Of a stretch of DNA of 64,000 nucleotides, positions 28,095 to 37,045 are shown piece after piece (position 1 is the first letter of the stretch; the number at the start of each line of letters is the position of its first letter). Made by a program: the position numbers and the translations under genes. The DNA is taken from positions 137,265 through 201,264 of IMG/VR virus record IMGVR_UViG_3300028374_000002; one strand, given 5' to 3'. A model generated the notes under the pieces. It was given only the letters and a program-made list of their open reading frames with translations. It did no database searches and was not told the DNA's origin. Origin of the DNA: a virus. Lineage: Duplodnaviria; Caudoviricetes.

Positions 28095-28504
28095 TTATTT
28101 AATTTTATTTTTAAAGATTTAAGCAATCTCTCATCACTTTTATCAGGTGCTTTATTTAGGCTATCTATTTCTTTTTTATTCTTTTCTATTTTAGCTTGCA
28201 GAGATTTTAATAATTTCTTACTAAGATATGCTTCTCTCTTAGCTTGTATTATAGAATCTTGGCTTTGTTCTATCTTTGTAGAAAGTATACTATCCATTTC
28301 TTTTAATAAAACATATTCTCCCTTTATACTATCTAATTCAAATGTCAAGGAATCTCTTTTGGCTATAAGACTCTCATTTTTAGCATTAAGCCTTTCTATA
28401 TCTTCCTTGTATGAATCATCTGTTTCGAAATATTCCTTGTATATAAAAAATACTAATAGAAAGAATAAGACTGTTATTAGTATTGATTTATTATCTAATT
28501 TCAT
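28091..28504 (-). CDS. N-terminal TM plus coiled-coil protein, possible i-spanin
   Basis: TM SILITVLFFLLVFFIY, then long heptad region; 4-nt overlap with the downstream gene. Confidence 0.5.
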   Translation of the reverse strand: MKLDNKSILITVLFFLLVFFIYKEYFETDDSYKEDIERLNAKNESLIAKRDSLTFELDSIKGEYVLLKEMDSILSTKIEQSQDSIIQAKREAYLSKKLLKSLQAKIEKNKKEIDSLNKAPDKSDERLLKSLKIKLNK

Positions 28505-28572
28505 ATATTTTATTTTTTTTCTTATATATTATATTGCATTATCCACATATTATTTATATATTTGTCAAAAAA

Positions 28573-29091
28573 ATGATTAGAGAATTATACTGTTTTGATT
28601 TTGATAAAACACTGTGCTTAACACCAGAGCCAAAAGAAGGTAAAGTTATATGGAAAGAAAAGACTGGTGAGGATTGGGGACACCGAGGTTGGTGGGGTAA
28701 GCCTGACTCTTTAGATACTAGTGTATTTGATATACCAAAGGTTGATTGGATTTATGAAGAATATCTAAGGGCAGTTGCTAGACCAGGTTCTTACGTCATT
28801 ATGGCTACTGGGAGACAGAATAGAGTAATGGGAATGAGATCCCGTGTTGAAGAAATTATTAGAAGCCACAATATGTCCTTTGATGAGGTTCATTTATGTA
28901 GTGGTCACGATACATTTACATTTAAAGTAAAGCTATTTGAAAATCAAATAGAAAATACTAAATGTGAACACTTCACTATGTATGATGATAGGGCTGAGCA
29001 TTTAGAAAAATTCGCTAGGTGGGGAGAAACACAAAAGATAAAGATTACAATAATCGACTCAATTAACAAAACTATAAAAACATTTAATTAA
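28573..29091 (+). CDS. HAD-family protein (Swiss-Army-knife RNA-repair-like HAD domain)
   Basis: LYCFDFDKTL..TP.P, WW..P..L, MATGR, MYDDR; ATG 28573 follows TATATTTG promoter at 28557-28564. Confidence 0.65.
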   Translation: MIRELYCFDFDKTLCLTPEPKEGKVIWKEKTGEDWGHRGWWGKPDSLDTSVFDIPKVDWIYEEYLRAVARPGSYVIMATGRQNRVMGMRSRVEEIIRSHNMSFDEVHLCSGHDTFTFKVKLFENQIENTKCEHFTMYDDRAEHLEKFARWGETQKIKITIIDSINKTIKTFN

Positions 29092-29096
29092 TAGCT

Positions 29097-29375
29097 ATGA
29101 CAAAGATAAAAGAAGAAACTAAGACAGAAGTAGAAGAAATATTATCTAGTCCATATAGACTAGATTTACACAATGACTCCCATAATTCATTTGAACATGT
29201 TATTAAGTGTTTGATAAATATATGTGGACACGAAAAAGAACAAGCAAATCAATGTGCACACATTGTACACTTTAAAGGTATTTGTGATGTTAAGTATGGT
29301 GATTATGAGACTATTTCTAGTATGAAAGAAAAATTGTCAAATAATGGACTGCTTGTTACTATGGAGGAAAACTAG
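29097..29375 (+). CDS. clpS: ATP-dependent Clp protease adaptor ClpS
   Basis: RLDLHNDSHNSFEHVIKCL..IC.H..EQA.QCAHIVHFKG.C.VK.G. Confidence 0.85.
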   Translation: MTKIKEETKTEVEEILSSPYRLDLHNDSHNSFEHVIKCLINICGHEKEQANQCAHIVHFKGICDVKYGDYETISSMKEKLSNNGLLVTMEEN

Positions 29376-29379
29376 CTGA

Positions 29380-32300
29380 TTACCTGCGTCTTCCATATCC
29401 ACTACTTGACTTATATTTACTCTGACCATATCCACCACCAGTTCTAGAACCAAGTGTTTTTTTCTTCACATCTAAAAAGTGTGTGTAATCATTACTTTCT
29501 ATATAATCAGATTTCTTCATACACTCATTTATGTAATCAACTATTTCCTTATCAACATGTTTGTTCATCCATTCGTGTATCATCTCTGTAAACTCGTTCT
29601 TTTCGAATATAGATGTAGCATTTACAATAGTCATGACACAATTATGTACAACTATCCCATTTGCTACATAACTATTATCATCCTCTACTTCTAAATTATA
29701 AGTTGTTCCAGTATAATTATACTTTTCATTTCTTTGTAGTACTGACGAATATTCAAAATCAGAAATCTTTCTCATACATGACCTTTCTAAACTATCTTCA
29801 TAAATAGATACCCAATATTGGCTTTTCGTAGGCTTACCATATCTATGTCTTTTATTATAGGATATTACTGCATGTTTGTCTAATGATATAGATATATCTC
29901 TCATAGTCAATGCTAGTTGAAAACTAGTTGAACATCCTATGTAATGTTTAGTCTTACCAGGTGTTTCACAGAGCCAACCATCTCCCTTTATCCAATAATC
30001 TAGGACTAGGGACATTTTCTCTTTATCTAGTTTGTTATAGAGCATTTCGGGGAATATTTTCTCTTTATCTTCATCATAGCATTTAGAAAATATTTCCCAT
30101 AAGAATCTATTATAAAATATCACAGTAGTGCAATTATTTCTATTCTGTACATGATATTTTAAATTCCAGTTATTTATTATATCCTTCATTTCATCAATAA
30201 GAGTTAAATCTTTATCATTAAAGGCTAAAGTTATTCGGTAAGTATTATGAGATGGTTTATAACTGTTACCATCTGCTAAGAATAAGCCTAAAAACTTAGC
30301 AAAATTATTATCTAGTTCTATTTCCTTTATTTTAAAATTAGATGACGGAGAATATTTATTCCTTTCAAATAATTCTTGATATTTGATATTATTAACATCA
30401 CCAGTATATAGAGGTGATTTTATAACAACACACCTAGATTTATTAGAAATGTCACTTGGTAAAATCCACTCTCGCTTAAGATAATTATTATAATTCTTTC
30501 TATTTTTCTTTGAGTAGTCATTTTTTGGAACATATATAGGATGGTTATATGTTATATCTAAGCTAGGTTGGCCTCTAAATTTGATTCTGTGCATAACACC
30601 ATCAAAATCTTTTTTACATATATTTGTTACTGGTTTGTAATTTCCTAAATGTGTTAACACCAACTCACCTAATTTGATATCTTTTATTCTTTTATAACCA
30701 TTTATAGTCTTTATAAGAGTGTTTGGCAAAACGCAATCATCGTTTCCATTATCTGCTGCATATTTTATATTACCAGAACTAGTTGTATGTTTTACAAATG
30801 TGGTTATTTCCCTTATGGTGTCTTCATTATTTATTGAGAAAGATTTACTAAGCATTAGAGATTGGTAGTCTTTTATAAGTAAATTTTTTAAACTTGTTAC
30901 TTTAAGTCCTACCTTTTCTTCTGGTGAATCTATTCTGTGCTTATATCTAACAAATACAGAAGAACCATAATCATTAATACCATCAAAAACATGAGGTAGT
31001 TCTGCTAGTAATGTATTTCCATAGTTGTTAAGTTCTAAAACTATTTTAAGGTTATCTGGATTAAAATATTCAAAAGCTAATATATAAAGCAATTCTGACA
31101 TTTGTTTAATAGATATTATATTACTTCGATATATCCCAATTTGTTCTAGTTTGAAAAAATCCTTTATTGATGAATACTTTTCTTTTTGTATATCTATGAC
31201 CTCTCTACTTTTATTACTTATTCTGAATATGTTTATAACAGAAAAATCTTGACCTAATCCCTCTGCAAGGTCAATTGATAAGACTATTTTATATTCTTTT
31301 CTTTTTATAGGGTTGTATATATCATAATCATCAACCCATTTTAAATTTTCATAGGAAAAATTTAGCTTATCTTCAAATTCATATATCTCCTCCCACTCAT
31401 AAAGAATTTTATTATTCAATAAATGGTCTATAATATTTTCACTTAGTAAAGATTTACTAGCATTTACAAATCTAAGACCGTATTCTTGGTTAAAAGCATC
31501 TTCTCCACCAATATCTTTTATTGCCTCATCCTTCCATGTAGTAAGTTCTGCTAACTCTAGTATAGATATCTCTTTACCATCGGGTGTTTTTATATTAAAT
31601 CCAACAACATCCTCATCATGACAATAATCATTATTATAAACCTCGATTACATATTTTTGTAAATCAACACTCCAACTCATTTCGACCTTAGTATCAGCAC
31701 CCCATTTATTATGTACTTGATTAAGAATATCATCCTTTTCTATTTTGTTTTCGTATAATTTATGATCATTAAGCCTTATATATGTAACAAACCTACCAGG
31801 GACTTGATACCAGTAAACCCTCATAGGGGTGTAGTTGTTTCTTTGTGGGTCACCAGCTGGTCGTTCTGCATTAGTAAGTAATTTATGAAATAAATTCATA
31901 CCATTTGGTGTAGATGTGATTATTATTTTAGAGTTTTTTATTGCAGATACTGTTGGAAAAACCGCAGTATAATATGGTTCTATTATGTTTGAAGGAATAT
32001 GTGCAAATTCATCTAAATAAAGAACATCAATAGTAAAACCAATAGCTGGAGTCTTTGTCCTAGCAGAGGTCTTAATACGACAACCATTGTCAAATGTTAG
32101 TGATTTTTGATTCCATGTTTTTATACCAGGTTTTAAAAAAAATGGTAGTAATGAATAAATGGATTTTATCTTGTCAACAATCTCAACTGATGTATCTCCC
32201 TTGTTAGCTACAATCATAATGTTTTTATCATTATTGAATAGTATTGTATGGAGCATAAATATAGAAGCAGATATAGTATTATGTGAAAGTATCCCATTCG

Positions 32301-32727
32301 TGTAGAACCTATGATTCTGATGGTCTACCGATAAATCAAACATAGATGATTTATAATCTTCCCTTTTTATATGCTTCACAATACTATTGCCATTTTTGGT
32401 CTTTATAGTATCGCCTATTTTTAATTCTTTACAGAATACTTCATCAAAATATTCATCAAATAATATATGATTATCTGCACAAGTTAAGCTAAGACCGTCA
32501 ATAGTTTTGATATTATAATGATTAAATGGTTGTGTTAAATGTATCTCTGATACTGCCTCATATCCAGTATCAGTCTTTACTCTAATATCTATTAAAGATA
32601 TAGATTTTAATATTTTTTTAGAAATATCATCCTCATCCAATGATACATTTCTATATTGGTATTTTTCTATCAACTCAATAGATTTTTCTATCAACTCAAT
32701 CAATATTTTTTTAAGAAGTGTAATCAT
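29380..32727 (-). CDS. terL: Terminase large subunit, C-terminal part: split-intein C-fragment + ATPase/nuclease + contiguous LAGLIDADG intein
   Basis: After GILSHN|T: NIMIVANKG, KTWNQKSLTFDNG, LYLDEFAHI, IIITSTPNGMN, SIDLAEGLGQDFS, GNDD...VMT, as in gp17. Confidence 0.88.
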   Translation of the reverse strand: MITLLKKILIELIEKSIELIEKYQYRNVSLDEDDISKKILKSISLIDIRVKTDTGYEAVSEIHLTQPFNHYNIKTIDGLSLTCADNHILFDEYFDEVFCKELKIGDTIKTKNGNSIVKHIKREDYKSSMFDLSVDHQNHRFYTNGILSHNTISASIFMLHTILFNNDKNIMIVANKGDTSVEIVDKIKSIYSLLPFFLKPGIKTWNQKSLTFDNGCRIKTSARTKTPAIGFTIDVLYLDEFAHIPSNIIEPYYTAVFPTVSAIKNSKIIITSTPNGMNLFHKLLTNAERPAGDPQRNNYTPMRVYWYQVPGRFVTYIRLNDHKLYENKIEKDDILNQVHNKWGADTKVEMSWSVDLQKYVIEVYNNDYCHDEDVVGFNIKTPDGKEISILELAELTTWKDEAIKDIGGEDAFNQEYGLRFVNASKSLLSENIIDHLLNNKILYEWEEIYEFEDKLNFSYENLKWVDDYDIYNPIKRKEYKIVLSIDLAEGLGQDFSVINIFRISNKSREVIDIQKEKYSSIKDFFKLEQIGIYRSNIISIKQMSELLYILAFEYFNPDNLKIVLELNNYGNTLLAELPHVFDGINDYGSSVFVRYKHRIDSPEEKVGLKVTSLKNLLIKDYQSLMLSKSFSINNEDTIREITTFVKHTTSSGNIKYAADNGNDDCVLPNTLIKTINGYKRIKDIKLGELVLTHLGNYKPVTNICKKDFDGVMHRIKFRGQPSLDITYNHPIYVPKNDYSKKNRKNYNNYLKREWILPSDISNKSRCVVIKSPLYTGDVNNIKYQELFERNKYSPSSNFKIKEIELDNNFAKFLGLFLADGNSYKPSHNTYRITLAFNDKDLTLIDEMKDIINNWNLKYHVQNRNNCTTVIFYNRFLWEIFSKCYDEDKEKIFPEMLYNKLDKEKMSLVLDYWIKGDGWLCETPGKTKHYIGCSTSFQLALTMRDISISLDKHAVISYNKRHRYGKPTKSQYWVSIYEDSLERSCMRKISDFEYSSVLQRNEKYNYTGTTYNLEVEDDNSYVANGIVVHNCVMTIVNATSIFEKNEFTEMIHEWMNKHVDKEIVDYINECMKKSDYIESNDYTHFLDVKKKTLGSRTGGGYGQSKYKSSSGYGRRR
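29641..30735 (-). mobile_element. Contiguous intein (365 aa) with LAGLIDADG endonuclease in the TerL nuclease domain
   Basis: GNDD|CVLPNT...ITYNHP...FLGLFLADG...LDYWIKGDG...TYNLEVED...GIVVHN|CVMT. Confidence 0.9.
32278..32727 (-). mobile_element. Split intein C-fragment (150 aa)
   Basis: Block B LTCADNH, block F MFDLSV, block G GILSHN followed by Thr(+1). Confidence 0.85.
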
Positions 32728-32745
32728 TTTTTTTATTATTTTTAT

Positions 32746-33741
32746 CTATACATTATTTAAAAAATCTATACATTTTTTAATAGTTAAATCTTTTTTGCTT
32801 TTATATTCAGTATCCCATATTATTAGAATATCAAATCCTTTTGATTTAGCAATATTTATTTTTAAATTATCTTTATCCCATATTTCCCTTGCAGTAGGTC
32901 CACTTTCTTTATAGAAAGGATGTGGGTAATCGTTCTCTTTGAAAGTTTTAGGATTTGCATGGTATAAATCACCATTGTATTCGATAATTTTCATTCTTTT
33001 TCTATCAGTGAAATCATATGAGAAAAATCCTACATCTTTAACTGATATAAAGAACTCTTTATTTTTTATTGCATAGTGTACACGTTTTAGTTCATTATCT
33101 GTATAAATCTTACTTATCTTTTTAAATAGGTCTTGTGATATTTCAGAATAGCCACATTTCATATTACCATTTTCTGCCAAATTTTTCTGCCAAAGTGTTT
33201 GTCTATCTAGCCATCTTTTCTTACCACCAACATCACCATATTTTTCTACACATTTTTTTAGAGAAAATGTACTTTGTCTTTCACTAAGCATCTTTTTAGA
33301 TGTTTCCTCATCATAACCTTTCAGTAAATAGTATTCTAAAGTAGTATCTGATATTCTATCCTTAATAGCTTCCTTTGCAAAAATACTTATATGCTTCTCT
33401 ATATTCTCTATACCTTCATATTTTGAAAAGTTCTTTGAAAATGGACTTCTCGATTTTCTTTCTAATTCAGTTGTATTTTCTTTGTGATTAGGATTTTTTC
33501 TGCCTCTTATTTTATCTGCAAACATTTTTTTATACTTTTCTGTCTTCATATGCTTACCACTTTTAATTGTTGTCTTAGCCTTATCTGATAATGCCATTAT
33601 AGGAGCACCTTCGTACAATTCTTTATATTCTTTAGTAGTCATATTATTATGTGCAAATTTTAAATGTTTACCATATATTCTTTTACATTGCTCACCACAT
33701 ATTCTACATGTTACAGTTTCTTTATTATCATTTATTATCAT
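32746..33741 (-). CDS. Free-standing putative homing endonuclease between the two TerL halves
   Basis: N-terminal CRIC..HL..AH Zn finger; C-terminal SYDFTD...IIEYNGDLYHAN...WDKD..K...A..KGF...IIWDTE (Vsr/PD-(D/E)XK-like). Confidence 0.68.
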   Translation of the reverse strand: MIINDNKETVTCRICGEQCKRIYGKHLKFAHNNMTTKEYKELYEGAPIMALSDKAKTTIKSGKHMKTEKYKKMFADKIRGRKNPNHKENTTELERKSRSPFSKNFSKYEGIENIEKHISIFAKEAIKDRISDTTLEYYLLKGYDEETSKKMLSERQSTFSLKKCVEKYGDVGGKKRWLDRQTLWQKNLAENGNMKCGYSEISQDLFKKISKIYTDNELKRVHYAIKNKEFFISVKDVGFFSYDFTDRKRMKIIEYNGDLYHANPKTFKENDYPHPFYKESGPTAREIWDKDNLKINIAKSKGFDILIIWDTEYKSKKDLTIKKCIDFLNNV

Positions 33742-33811
33742 AATTTATTCTGTTTTATTATTAAATGCTTTTATATATAAAAAGATGTTGGCTTGTTATC
33801 AAATAGGTAAA

Positions 33812-34327
33812 TTATTTTTCTAGCAAAAATAAAATATCATATAGTTTAATTTTTATTTTTTCTAATAATGTTAGTGATCTTTCTTGCTTAAGCATGTAGT
33901 AATATAGTTTACCAATTCTATATTCTTTTCTAATTTCCTTGCTCTTAATTTCGCATAAAGTGTTGAAGGTCAAGCACTTACCCACCTGCCTACTAGCCAT
34001 TAATATATTGAATCGATTATCAACAAAATTATCTAATATGTCAGCTTGATAGTCTCTAAGTGTTATTGCTCCAATAGAACCATCTTCTCTTTTCACCTTA
34101 CAGTATTTTTCGGTAAAATGGTGTATATCTAGTGCACATTTAATGTATTCTCCTTGCTCGGCACTTGTCATCTTAAATGTAAGACCTGATCTTCTTAACC
34201 CTATTTCATTTTTAAGCCATGGGTTTTGAAACCTTTTTAGTACTATACCATCATTTATCTTATCAGTAGCCTCGGTAACGTTCTCACTACTAAATACCAT
34301 TTGTCTTTCTTTCTTAATCTTTGCCAT
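33812..34327 (-). CDS. terL: Terminase large subunit, N-terminal part + split-intein N-fragment
   Basis: YIKCALDIHHFTEKYCKV, LRDYQ..IL, FNILMASRQVGK (Walker A), then CLTFNT intein block A. Confidence 0.88.
   Translation of the reverse strand: MAKIKKERQMVFSSENVTEATDKINDGIVLKRFQNPWLKNEIGLRRSGLTFKMTSAEQGEYIKCALDIHHFTEKYCKVKREDGSIGAITLRDYQADILDNFVDNRFNILMASRQVGKCLTFNTLCEIKSKEIRKEYRIGKLYYYMLKQERSLTLLEKIKIKLYDILFLLEK
33815..33976 (-). mobile_element. Split intein N-fragment (54 aa)
   Basis: Cys1 directly after RQVGK; ORF stops 54 aa later without block B. Confidence 0.82.
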
Positions 34328-34369
34328 AAGCGACTTATTTTTTTATATATATTATAAAAAAACAGCTCT

Positions 34370-35020
34370 ATGTCTAAAACAGATAAAGAAAAAAGTAGGA
34401 TACAAGACGAATTTGATCAAATACAAGGGGAGAATAATGATTTTGATATATCAAAACATTTGGCAGAAGCAGAAGATTTACCAGACCTTGGTGAGATAAG
34501 CTTGTATGATTATGATGCAGATTTAAGCACATCATCACAGCAATCAGTGGAGGTTTTAAGTTCACTTATAGACTTATACCTAAGTGATGTTCCAAAACTA
34601 AAACAACATCCTTATATAAAAAATAAGATGAAGGAAGATGCTATGGTATATTCAGAGGCTATATTCTTGGCTAAAATGACTAGAAAAAACTTCCTTAACC
34701 AACTACGCCAAATTGATAATGGGGAAAGCTCAGCTAGAATGCACGAAGTTGTTAACCAGACTATTGTGCAGGTTAGGGAAAACTCTAAATTTCTATCCAC
34801 ACAAAGAACTGACTTAGAAAAGTTCTATAAGAATCTAAGAACAGATATGGGATTAGACGATATTGAAAATTCAGAGGTTTTAGAGTCACAATCTGATAAA
34901 GCGAAAGATTCACAAGATGATGGTGATATTGTTGATAATAGAAAACTAAATGACCTTATAAAAGGAGCAATGATGAAAGAGAGTAATAATAAAAAAGAAA
35001 GTAAGGGTAAAAAGAAGTAA
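34370..35020 (+). CDS. Probable terminase small subunit (gp16-like)
   Basis: Helical; ESSARMHEVVNQTI resembles the gp16 SPRAYEV motif; divergent from TerL. Confidence 0.55.
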   Translation: MSKTDKEKSRIQDEFDQIQGENNDFDISKHLAEAEDLPDLGEISLYDYDADLSTSSQQSVEVLSSLIDLYLSDVPKLKQHPYIKNKMKEDAMVYSEAIFLAKMTRKNFLNQLRQIDNGESSARMHEVVNQTIVQVRENSKFLSTQRTDLEKFYKNLRTDMGLDDIENSEVLESQSDKAKDSQDDGDIVDNRKLNDLIKGAMMKESNNKKESKGKKK

Positions 35021-35872
35021 TTATATTTTTAAGTACTTAAATGTTTCAAAAGTTTTCACTAAATTATTAGCATGTATTAGAATATCTTTTTGTTTAAAGA
35101 TGTTTCTTTGGTTATATGTTACCTCCCTAACCATAACGTATTTATCTACTCTATTCGTAATGTCATGGATATTATTTTTTATACCATCGCTAGTATTACT
35201 CATTATTGTGGTAAACACATCGTTTATATTAATAGCCAAATCAATAGATTTTTTATTTTCATCATAAAAGTGGACTGTGTTATAATTCTCAACAACTGTA
35301 TCTGTAAATTTGTCACCATCAGTTTTATAACCGAACAAATGTTGTAATAAGAGTCTTGTTTTTAGATATGAGATATAATCTTTATCTCTATTATAGAATG
35401 TTTCTGATAGAAAGTAATAATCTTTTACTACTAGATTCATATCACCCAATTCCTTCTCTAAGCTATCTATAATCGTTTTGTAGCTACTTTTACTTTTTTT
35501 AGAACATATTATGTATATATCATCGTTTTTGTTTCTAAGGTGCTGAAAATGCTTCTTATAGATAGTGTAGTCTAAATTTTCTATAATACTTGTATTCATA
35601 AATTCTTGTAAGGAGAATGATAGGTCAGTTATGTTGAACTTCATACTTTTACTCTTAATCTTTAGTGTGTTGTAAAGGTTTTCTGGTAGCCAATATCCAA
35701 CATCATCAATATTAAGCATAGAATTATATTTCTTATAGATACCTTTTTTTATTAAATTGAATTCTGATTCAGTTAATTTAATGATGGGTATCGAAGGTTT
35801 ATTCTTAGAGACTAACCATACTGAATTATCTATCTTAATAAGTGTATCAATGTCAAAAAAATGTGCCTTCAT
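35021..35872 (-). CDS. Hypothetical protein, HAD-like fold
   Basis: AHFFDIDTLI at N-terminus, HFYDEN near C-terminus. Confidence 0.5.
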   Translation of the reverse strand: MKAHFFDIDTLIKIDNSVWLVSKNKPSIPIIKLTESEFNLIKKGIYKKYNSMLNIDDVGYWLPENLYNTLKIKSKSMKFNITDLSFSLQEFMNTSIIENLDYTIYKKHFQHLRNKNDDIYIICSKKSKSSYKTIIDSLEKELGDMNLVVKDYYFLSETFYNRDKDYISYLKTRLLLQHLFGYKTDGDKFTDTVVENYNTVHFYDENKKSIDLAININDVFTTIMSNTSDGIKNNIHDITNRVDKYVMVREVTYNQRNIFKQKDILIHANNLVKTFETFKYLKI

Positions 35873-35873
35873 A

Positions 35874-36125
35874 TTATTTGCTATATTTATTAGTTTCAGT
35901 ATACCTTATTTCCTCTTGTCCACCACCCTTTGGTTCATCTTCATATTCTCTATCTTCCCATGTTACTCCACCACTTGTTTGTGAGTTAAAGCTTTTGCAT
36001 TTACTACATTCCTTTGGAAATACACTTTTTCCATCTTTTTCTATTGCTTTATCAATATCATAGTAAAAGGGAGCTTTGCACCAAGGATTATTACACACTA
36101 ATCTTTTTTTATTTTCTCTATCCAT
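35874..36125 (-). CDS. Small Zn-ribbon protein
   Basis: CNNPWC...ECSKC; after TTAATATATA at 36130-36139. Confidence 0.65.
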   Translation of the reverse strand: MDRENKKRLVCNNPWCKAPFYYDIDKAIEKDGKSVFPKECSKCKSFNSQTSGGVTWEDREYEDEPKGGGQEEIRYTETNKYSK

Positions 36126-36280
36126 AATCTATATATTAATTAAAAAACATGCAAGATCATGACTATATAGATATTATAATATAAATTTTGTACTTGTATA
36201 GAATTTTAGTTAAAATAAATCCTTTTTACTTACAAAAACATGCAACATCATGATATATAAATATATTTAATATAAAATTT

Positions 36281-36736
36281 TCATTTTATTAGACTTTCGC
36301 TTAGTGCAAATTCATATATGTTAAGTAAATTTAGCTCATATTCAAATATAGATTTTACATCTGCTAATGTCTTTGAATTCTCTACTGCTTCAACTATCAT
36401 AGTTCCAAACTTTTCTTGAAAATGTATATATGATTCACACCACGGCTTATTGTAGTTTACAAGTGTATCCCACTCTTTTTGACCACCTGATAACCAGTAC
36501 AAACTTTTTTCTGGGATTACTGAATATTTCTTAAAATCGTCCAATCTAGTTTTCCATATACTATCTGTTGAATCGACCCTTTTCATTAATATCGATACTG
36601 CTTCTGCTACATCATCTGTTATTTGTTCACCAATTTCAAAGAAATAACCACATTCTGTTTTATAAATAGATACTATATTATCATTAAAAACTATATCTGA
36701 TAAATTCATCTTAACCAAAGTTTTTCTTTTTTTCAT
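36281..36736 (-). CDS. Hypothetical protein
   Basis: 151-aa ORF in an operon with neighbours. Confidence 0.65.
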   Translation of the reverse strand: MKKRKTLVKMNLSDIVFNDNIVSIYKTECGYFFEIGEQITDDVAEAVSILMKRVDSTDSIWKTRLDDFKKYSVIPEKSLYWLSGGQKEWDTLVNYNKPWCESYIHFQEKFGTMIVEAVENSKTLADVKSIFEYELNLLNIYEFALSESLIK

Positions 36737-36760
36737 AGCTATCTATTATTTTTTATACTC

Positions 36761-37045
36761 TTATATTCTTAATCCACTGTTCCACTTACCACTAAAAAGC
36801 CCATCTTCAAAAATTCCATTTAACCAATTACCATAAAATTCACCCCCTTTAAATACACCATAATACCAATTACCACTTAGGTAAACACCATCATGCCATA
36901 TTAGAGTATTCTTTCTTATTTCTATAACTGCGTTGGAAATTTCGGAGTCTATTAACCAATAGAATTCCTCTTCTTTAAGTATCTCTACTATCGTATCAAT
37001 ATCTTTATAGGCTTTATCTTTGTAAGTAATCTGTTTAAACTTCAT
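36761..37045 (-). CDS. Hypothetical protein with Gly/aromatic short repeats (W/F-x-x-G)
   Basis: WHDGVYLSGNWYYGVFKGGEFYGNWLNGIFEDG. Confidence 0.65.
   Translation of the reverse strand: MKFKQITYKDKAYKDIDTIVEILKEEEFYWLIDSEISNAVIEIRKNTLIWHDGVYLSGNWYYGVFKGGEFYGNWLNGIFEDGLFSGKWNSGLRI

Follow-up and report, generated by a model that had tools for sequence, protein, structure and literature searches.

A phage terminase gene fractured at its Walker A motif by a predicted atypical split intein with an endonuclease gene in the break

Introduction

Atypically split inteins that interrupt the large terminase subunit (TerL) of phages are a known kind of element, and AceL-TerL, GOS-TerL and the consensus Cat split inteins are reportedly the subject of work by Thiel in 2014, Bachmann and Mootz in 2015 and Stevens in 2018. 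Atypical natural splits fall after the first helix of the intein, at the S2 position (PMC13014065); the published N-terminal and C-terminal intein fragments (IntN and IntC) measure 15–37 and 104–115 amino acids (aa), respectively (PMC13014065, PMC11766414), and the published atypical TerL inteins all have a cysteine at the +1 position (PMC11766414). Fractured terminase genes are known as well: Dassa et al. 2009 (PMC2677866) described a gp17-like terminase from Lake Gatun with a split intein and a free-standing endonuclease gene between the halves, the sole one of their loci "fractured at an unusual point", whose 122-aa C part holds all motifs but N1, and they found a Vsr-like endonuclease family in half of their loci. 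The nuclease I-Bth0305I of the EDxHD family was characterized by Taylor et al. 2011 (PMC3239194; PDB 3r3p), and split inteins have been engineered with coiled coils or dimerizers, for example FKBP/FRB on Sce VMA (PMC11766414). Here we analyze a locus of this kind in a 64,000-nucleotide (nt) stretch of phage DNA (hereafter the window), which forms the final 64 kb of the 201-kb IMG/VR record IMGVR_UViG_3300028374_000002 and in which the terminase gene terL is divided by a putative split intein with an endonuclease gene between the halves. We report the anatomy, homologies, residue conservation, allele polymorphism and recombination boundaries of the locus, and weigh the splicing, helix pairing and homing that they suggest.

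A first-pass annotation of the window had assigned the locus to the fractured genes and atypical TerL split inteins already known, and comparison with the described systems upholds this. The window and the Lake Gatun locus share a myovirus-type terminase gene, a split intein and an endonuclease gene inserted between its halves, but the fragments of the window (IntC 150 aa, IntN 54 aa) each carry one hairpin helix, and its endonuclease gene is not preceded by a hairpin that would sequester the ribosome-binding site (RBS). Relative to AceL-TerL, GOS-TerL and Cat, it has the same TerL host, the same atypical split, the same Cys1 class-1 chemistry and an IntC homologous to CatC, whereas both fragments fall outside the published length ranges and the +1 residue is Thr instead of Cys; a second intein in the same gene sets it further apart. 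The endonuclease resembles I-Bth0305I in its C-terminal nuclease fold and in its association with inteins in fractured genes, has Asp/Glu/His positions that are conserved among its homologues, and differs in its DNA-binding part, which comprises a Ros/MucR zinc finger and a helical region rather than NUMOD repeats. Finally, as in engineered dimerizer-split inteins, an auxiliary interaction module is predicted on both fragments; in the window this module would be natural, conserved and internal to the intein, and unsplit relatives have it in one piece. The basic arrangement is textbook material for intein specialists, and the locus on its own would be one more member of the family.

Results

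We consider it very likely that terL in the window is fractured by a class-1, atypical (S2-type) split intein within the Walker A motif, that a free-standing Vsr-like/EDxHD homing-endonuclease gene occupies the break, and that TerL is made by trans-splicing. The locus consists of three consecutive minus-strand open reading frames (ORFs). ORF1 (33812–34327, 171 aa) encodes a 117-aa TerL N-extein that ends in RQVGK, the first half of Walker A (33977–34327), followed by 54 intein residues starting with CLTFNT and a stop codon (33812–33814). ORF2 (32746–33741) is a separate gene for a 331-aa endonuclease, and ORF3 (29380–32727, 1115 aa) opens with a 150-aa IntC that ends in GILSHN and continues into TISASIF and the rest of TerL. 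The C-extein comes in two parts, 514 aa from Thr+1 with the second half of Walker A (30736–32277) and 86 aa plus the stop codon (29380–29640), on either side of a second, contiguous intein (29641–30735). A 70-nt A/T-rich spacer lies upstream of the endonuclease gene (33742–33811) and an 18-nt A-rich spacer ahead of the IntC start codon (32728–32745). The first-pass annotation had read the locus in the same way, from the stop 54 residues into the intein and the intervening 331-aa endonuclease-like ORF to the 150-aa IntC ending GILSHN|TIS and the two short spacers, and our coordinates agree with it throughout.

The terminase identity of the two exteins was assessed with protein profiles. PHROG profile 5989 runs without a gap over both exteins, with residues 42–120 of ORF1 matching positions 95–172 and residues 2–131 of the C-extein matching positions 171–293. 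Pfam gave no match on ORF1, where the terminase assignment comes from PHROG (5989, 36964 and 2, terminase large subunit), and Terminase_6N matched directly after IntC (E 3.8e-14). An intein-less relative, L015, reads RQVGK|TISSAIF uninterrupted in one frame. Because the TerL profiles are continuous and L015 has this uninterrupted reading, the insertion point, as judged from sequence, lies between Lys and Thr of the Walker A GKT, and joining the halves would restore GK-T as originally proposed.

When IntC was searched against PDB sequences with phmmer, it matched CatC (6dsl_B, E 6e-7), gp41-1 (E 3e-5) and VidaL (E 6e-5), aligning to residues 20–128 of the 128 in gp41-1 and to residues 8–111 of CatC, with IntC residue 38 placed opposite CatC residue 8. 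Since IntC covers gp41-1 from residue 20 to 128, IntN would supply only about the first 20–25 intein residues (block A), so that by alignment the split is of the atypical TerL type that had been suggested, with block A alone in IntN and blocks B, F and G in IntC. A phmmer query of IntN with five extein residues found no match in PDB, being too short. On the basis of conservation and of the complex model described below, the IntN core comprises residues 1–25 (33902–33976), with Cys1, block A, the first beta-strands and the start of alpha1. The HINT core of IntC comprises residues 43–150 (32278–32601), with block B (ADNH, including His87), block F and block G (His149-Asn150).

Related viral contigs at 45–71% identity supplied 14 N and 15 C fragments in which conservation was evaluated. 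Cys1, directly after RQVGK, was invariant in 14 of 14 N fragments, while in the C fragments A84, D85 and H87 of the block B motif ADNH, aligned to SDNH in CatC, were invariant in 15 of 15, as were H149, N150 and T151, the +1 residue. Outside these motifs, D31, E32, D34, I35, S36, K37, K38 and I39 of IntC were also invariant in all 15 sequences, and they belong to a nearly invariant segment, (Y)RNxSLDEDDISKKIL, that spans IntC residues 27–42 (32602–32649) and was delimited by alignment and polymorphism. The ratio of nonsynonymous to synonymous polymorphism (pN/pS) was 0.20 in the exteins, 0.34 in the IntN tail, 0.49 in the IntC head helix, 0.23 in IntC residues 27–42 and 0.36–0.40 in the HINT parts, figures that are indicative only, with pS near saturation. 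By its Cys1, block B His, terminal His-Asn and +1 nucleophile, the element is, on sequence criteria, a class-1 intein, and splicing is predicted. An AF2 model of a contiguous homologue, L038 (predicted local distance difference test, pLDDT, 79.6), has the HINT fold, with Z 18.3 to VidaL (6vgv; root-mean-square deviation (rmsd) 2.1, 136 aligned) and Z scores exceeding 15 to some 30 further inteins; this fold check refers to the L038 homologue and not to the split pair of the window.

We also characterized the product of the gene in the break (32746–33741) from Pfam matches in its homologues, an AF2 model (pLDDT 85) and VIA superposition. Its 526 homologues include some named very-short-patch-repair endonuclease. 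Residues 7–45 form an N-terminal Ros/MucR-type C2H2 zinc finger, with ROS_MUCR matched by Pfam in 23 of 27 homologues and C12, C15, H26 and H31 nearly invariant among them; the middle part is helical, and residues 196–331 form a C-terminal Vsr-like/EDxHD-type nuclease domain, with DUF559 matched in 11 of the 27. Superposed with VIA, this domain gave Z 11.6 to Vsr (1cw0; rmsd 2.8, 117 aligned), Z 10.6 to the DUF559 protein 3hrl and Z 10.2 to the catalytic domain of I-Bth0305I (3r3p; rmsd 2.8, 95 of 97 residues aligned), all three exceeding the next unrelated rows. Sequence searches against PDB (phmmer and profile) returned just a Ros zinc finger (E 0.017, weak) and 3hrl (E 0.29) and no match to 3r3p, and a Foldseek search with the whole model returned nothing at E ≤ 0.001; VIA alignment of the same candidates resolved the fold. 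As modeled, the C-terminal domain thus has a Vsr-type nuclease fold, in line with the endonuclease-like reading of this ORF, and cleavage activity is predicted. Within the domain, D243, E254 and H261 were invariant and N256, D258 and D271 nearly invariant across the 27 homologues; these residues were paired with D196, N208, H213 and D222 of I-Bth0305I by spacing, not by residue-level superposition.

Comparison with a closely related contig, L014, delimited the cassette. N-extein identity between the window and L005–L014 was 98–100%, and DNA of L014 and the window was ~100% identical for kilobases on either side of the cassette. Identity dropped to 45–50% from 9 nt before the N-terminal splice junction, where the last three extein codons show three synonymous differences, and returned to 95–100% about 60 nt before the C-terminal junction. 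Between these boundaries, the 5′ half of the endonuclease gene, which encodes the zinc finger and the helical part, was 93–98% identical to L014 (33295–33714), compared with 33–73% for the 3′ half together with IntC and 33–68% for the nuclease half itself, and this step suggests a recombination breakpoint inside the endonuclease gene. Extein and intein trees disagree on L014, and L015, which has no intein, groups as the sister of a fractured allele. In addition, contigs from two salt-lake runs hold both cassette types, with assembly breaks exactly at 32346 and 30730. This pattern suggests repeated gene conversion of a homing cassette; the swap with its co-converted 9-nt flank, together with the presence/absence polymorphism, is indirect evidence of homing. 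Both halves have been exchanged together while part of the DNA between them was kept, as would fit a need for matched halves.

The second intein (29641–30735, 365 aa), bounded by GNDD|C and VVHN|C, contains a LAGLIDADG domain and matched Intein_splicing (E 1.5e-15), Hint_2 and LAGLIDADG_WhiA in Pfam. It is absent from L014, the exteins of which are 100% identical, and present in L042 at 52% identity, and contigs of two salt-lake runs carry an exact 1095-nt skip beside the occupied form.

Gene layouts among relatives were surveyed with a profile search of 1.84 billion representatives (E ≤ 0.001), which gave 2276 matches, and were classified for the best 150. Split genes with the head helix made up 47 of the 150 and split genes without it 69 (IntC 114–125 aa), while contiguous inteins with the hairpin accounted for about 13 and those without it for about 18. 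The +1 residue in the same 150 was Thr in 107, Ser in 30 and Cys in 1. The contiguous 198-aa version in L038 (845–1438) sits in an extein that is sister to the fractured L037 extein, a placement that the trees cannot root, so that L038 may be ancestral or re-fused after loss of the endonuclease gene. L029 (5257–6984, minus strand) and L027 (2753–4480, minus strand) have a different, 575-aa endonuclease-like gene in the gap, antisense to terL, with DUF7487 repeats and a weak match to a Vsr-type restriction endonuclease. In L042 (3537–10324) and L044, the terL halves are parted by six ordinary antisense genes and no endonuclease gene; the six genes of L042 are homologues of window genes at 35021–37045, its IntC-terL ORF has a divergent upstream region of its own (162 nt), and a separately assembled ENA data set contains the IntN-side junction of this layout too. 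Many viral contigs with TerL identities of only 30–75% retain the fractured arrangement and intact frames.

Two further kinds of variation were noted at this site. The contiguous relatives P0244 and P0265 carry 283–344 extra residues at the same atypical position, between block A and block B; these inserts had no Pfam match and could represent a domain nested in the intein at a non-canonical place. A more distant relative from the source lake has 675 letters from the end of the N-extein to the end of IntC, as against 1658 in the window, a length compatible with a cassette that has no endonuclease gene.

Compared with published fragments, IntN in the window has an excess of ~29 C-terminal residues and IntC one of ~30 N-terminal residues, and IntN ranges from 46 to 62 aa among relatives. 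The IntN excess (residues 26–54, 33815–33901) is predicted to be a hydrophobic/amphipathic helix, on the evidence of conservation, pN/pS and predicted contacts, and the IntC excess (residues 1–26, 32650–32727) forms a head helix according to predicted contacts and the L038 hairpin; the nearly invariant LDEDDISKKI adjoins it downstream. Both segments are joined through a short loop in L038, which AF2 models as a long helical hairpin (H28–51/H57–80), and in fractured relatives the stop of the IntN ORF and the start of the IntC ORF fall exactly in this loop. A model of the IntN-IntC complex scored an ipSAE of 0.85 compared with 0.01 for the best control, a mark attained by 58 of 80 solved complexes and 2 of 110 mismatched pairs, although a similar complex, Cat (6dsl), is already solved and the predictor's prior exposure to it may account for the HINT part. 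At least 78% of contacts were common to the model runs, with a partner pLDDT of at least 73. In this model, IntN residues 32–53 contact IntC residues 6–24 with a spacing of 3–4, the IntC contact residues (6, 9–10, 13–14, 16–17, 20–21 and 23–24) facing the IntN tail in a heptad-like pattern upstream of the part of IntC that can be aligned to CatC, and residues 28–43 and 51–59 of chain 2 dock into the IntC HINT core. Judged from the model, the chances are about even that the IntN tail and IntC head helices are a natural zipper, which is a plausible reading of these contacts. A literature search for split inteins that naturally bear helical or coiled-coil extensions returned nothing relevant within the limited collection covered.

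At the DNA level, the sequence encoding the IntC head helix contains a 19-nt exact direct repeat with a 21-nt period (32682–32700 and 32661–32679; LIELIEKS/IELIEKY), which was not found in this form in more distant relatives.

We then examined the genomic setting of the locus and signals for its expression. The 201-kb record has an estimated completeness of 28% in CheckV, and because a contig of this size is rated so incomplete, it is a fragment of a very large phage, uncultured and from a lake. Near-identical DNA was present in 23 metagenome runs from lake water and salt lakes, and a megablast search of GenBank phages with 29380–34327 as query gave no match. None of the 59 window ORFs of at least 120 aa, the endonuclease gene included, had a Shine-Dalgarno-like 4-mer upstream. 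Leaders in the window are 56% A, such that an A-rich leader is usual in this genome, and AGAATAAA precedes many window starts, the start of the endonuclease gene among them. A promoter scan was not informative (50 sites, compared with 43.6 ± 7 expected), and the scan for terminator-like sites found none between the three ORFs, which are therefore probably on one transcript. RNA folds of the 70-nt and 18-nt spacers were no better than those of shuffles, and the 70-nt spacer does not form a stable hairpin (minimum free energy −3.7 kcal/mol, z +1.67). An A/T palindrome lies at 34342–34366, in the 42-nt divergent region between the N-terminal terL gene and a plus-strand gene that starts at 34370, and the 91 nt around it fold at −17 kcal/mol (z −2.25).

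Discussion

In the mechanism that we favor, a mobile cassette interrupts the Walker A codons after GK and before T, with the intein broken after its first helix. The three ORFs would be translated separately into a 171-aa N-precursor, a 331-aa endonuclease and a 1115-aa C-precursor, after which the IntN strands would complete the HINT fold of IntC by docking into it and the IntN tail helix would pair with the IntC head helix, the two being halves of a hairpin that unsplit relatives have in one piece. Standard trans-splicing through Cys1, Thr+1, the block B His and the terminal His-Asn would then recreate the GKT P-loop, and the second, contiguous intein would splice in cis to give a TerL of 717 aa. 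During co-infections, the endonuclease may cut terL alleles that are intein-less or differently occupied, which would lead to gene conversion of the whole cassette.

This mechanism was weighed against three others, one of which acts on RNA. An intron, of group I or another type, could hold the endonuclease ORF inside a contiguous intein gene, such that a single precursor with a normal cis-splicing intein is translated, and Vsr-like/EDxHD endonuclease genes are indeed known in group I introns, as with I-Bth0305I (PMC3239194, PMC2677866), while L038 and about 13 of the 150 best cluster representatives have the intein in contiguous form. However, no Rfam family matched at E ≤ 1 on either strand of 28500–35500, hence no group I ribozyme core was found, and outside the endonuclease ORF just 70 and 18 nt remain, the folds of which do not surpass shuffled sequence. 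At the protein level, moreover, purifying selection has preserved the IntN tail as far as its stop codon and the IntC head from the start codon onward, and relatives have the endonuclease gene antisense (L027 and L029) or the halves parted by six antisense genes (L042 and L044). Given the lack of an Rfam match, the tiny spacers, the conservation at the protein level and these antisense layouts, splicing of the halves at the RNA level is unlikely, and the specific intron arrangement is in our judgment highly improbable. Because antisense and unlinked layouts are beyond repair by RNA splicing in cis, protein trans-splicing is the only economical reading, and one that we infer for this pair from its sequence.

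A different possibility is that the two TerL pieces assemble non-covalently through the helices and the intein halves, much like the split NrdA of phage Aeh1, an enzyme fragmented by a homing endonuclease and assembled through appended interaction domains (PMC3045599); the intein chemistry would then be vestigial. The pairing predicted for the two extra helices in the complex model would suit such an assembly. Yet Cys1, the block B His, the His-Asn pair and Thr+1 are all invariant across relatives at 45–71% identity, some 200 intein residues would stay inside the Walker A P-loop if they were not excised, and homologous atypical TerL inteins splice in vitro (PMC11766414); we regard non-covalent assembly as improbable. 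Nor does it seem at all likely that the insertion has simply killed terL while an intact terminase gene lies in sequence beyond the record. CheckV puts the sampled share of the genome at only 28%, which leaves room for such a copy, but Terminase_6N has a single match in the 201-kb record, and the fractured layout is retained with intact frames in many phages down to ~30% TerL identity, with an extein pN/pS of 0.20, read with the saturation of pS in mind.

Several points weigh against trans-splicing by this fractured cassette or against the pairing of its helices, the room left for a second terL by the incomplete record being one of them. The L038 hairpin is modeled with moderate confidence (pLDDT 54–80), and the IntN-IntC complex is itself a prediction. 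The hairpin is not required for splitting, as it is missing from 69 split genes among the 150 best cluster representatives. In the fold of the spacer upstream of the endonuclease gene, an RBS-sequestering hairpin of the type described by Dassa et al. was not found.

The fullest form of the helix proposal holds that IntN 26–54 and IntC 1–26 are the halves of a hairpin that act as a natural heterodimerizing zipper, pre-associating the fragments, and that the window-type and L014-type versions are matched, potentially orthogonal pairs that co-circulate within a single phage population. We put this forward tentatively and lean slightly against it. The split in the window falls within a conserved two-helix module, one that is absent from published atypical split inteins. 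Should these helices bring about association, the pair would be a natural counterpart of dimerizer-assisted split inteins, and would offer a handle on affinity and orthogonality. The first-pass annotation had also put the pair forward as a candidate new ligation tool; its anatomy was borne out, but its value as a tool is limited, since the IntN is long at 54 aa and the family has already been exploited as AceL-TerL, GOS-TerL and Cat.

The relatives of this locus display every stage of gene fracture at one insertion point, from intein-less through contiguous to unlinked halves, including mini-inteins with and without the hairpin and split forms with sense or antisense endonuclease genes. Near-identical phages from the same lake samples differ in which of two cassette alleles they carry and in whether the second intein is present. 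Recombination has exchanged the alleles at boundaries within a few bases of the splice junctions, unusually clean evidence from nature that the cassette is transferred whole.

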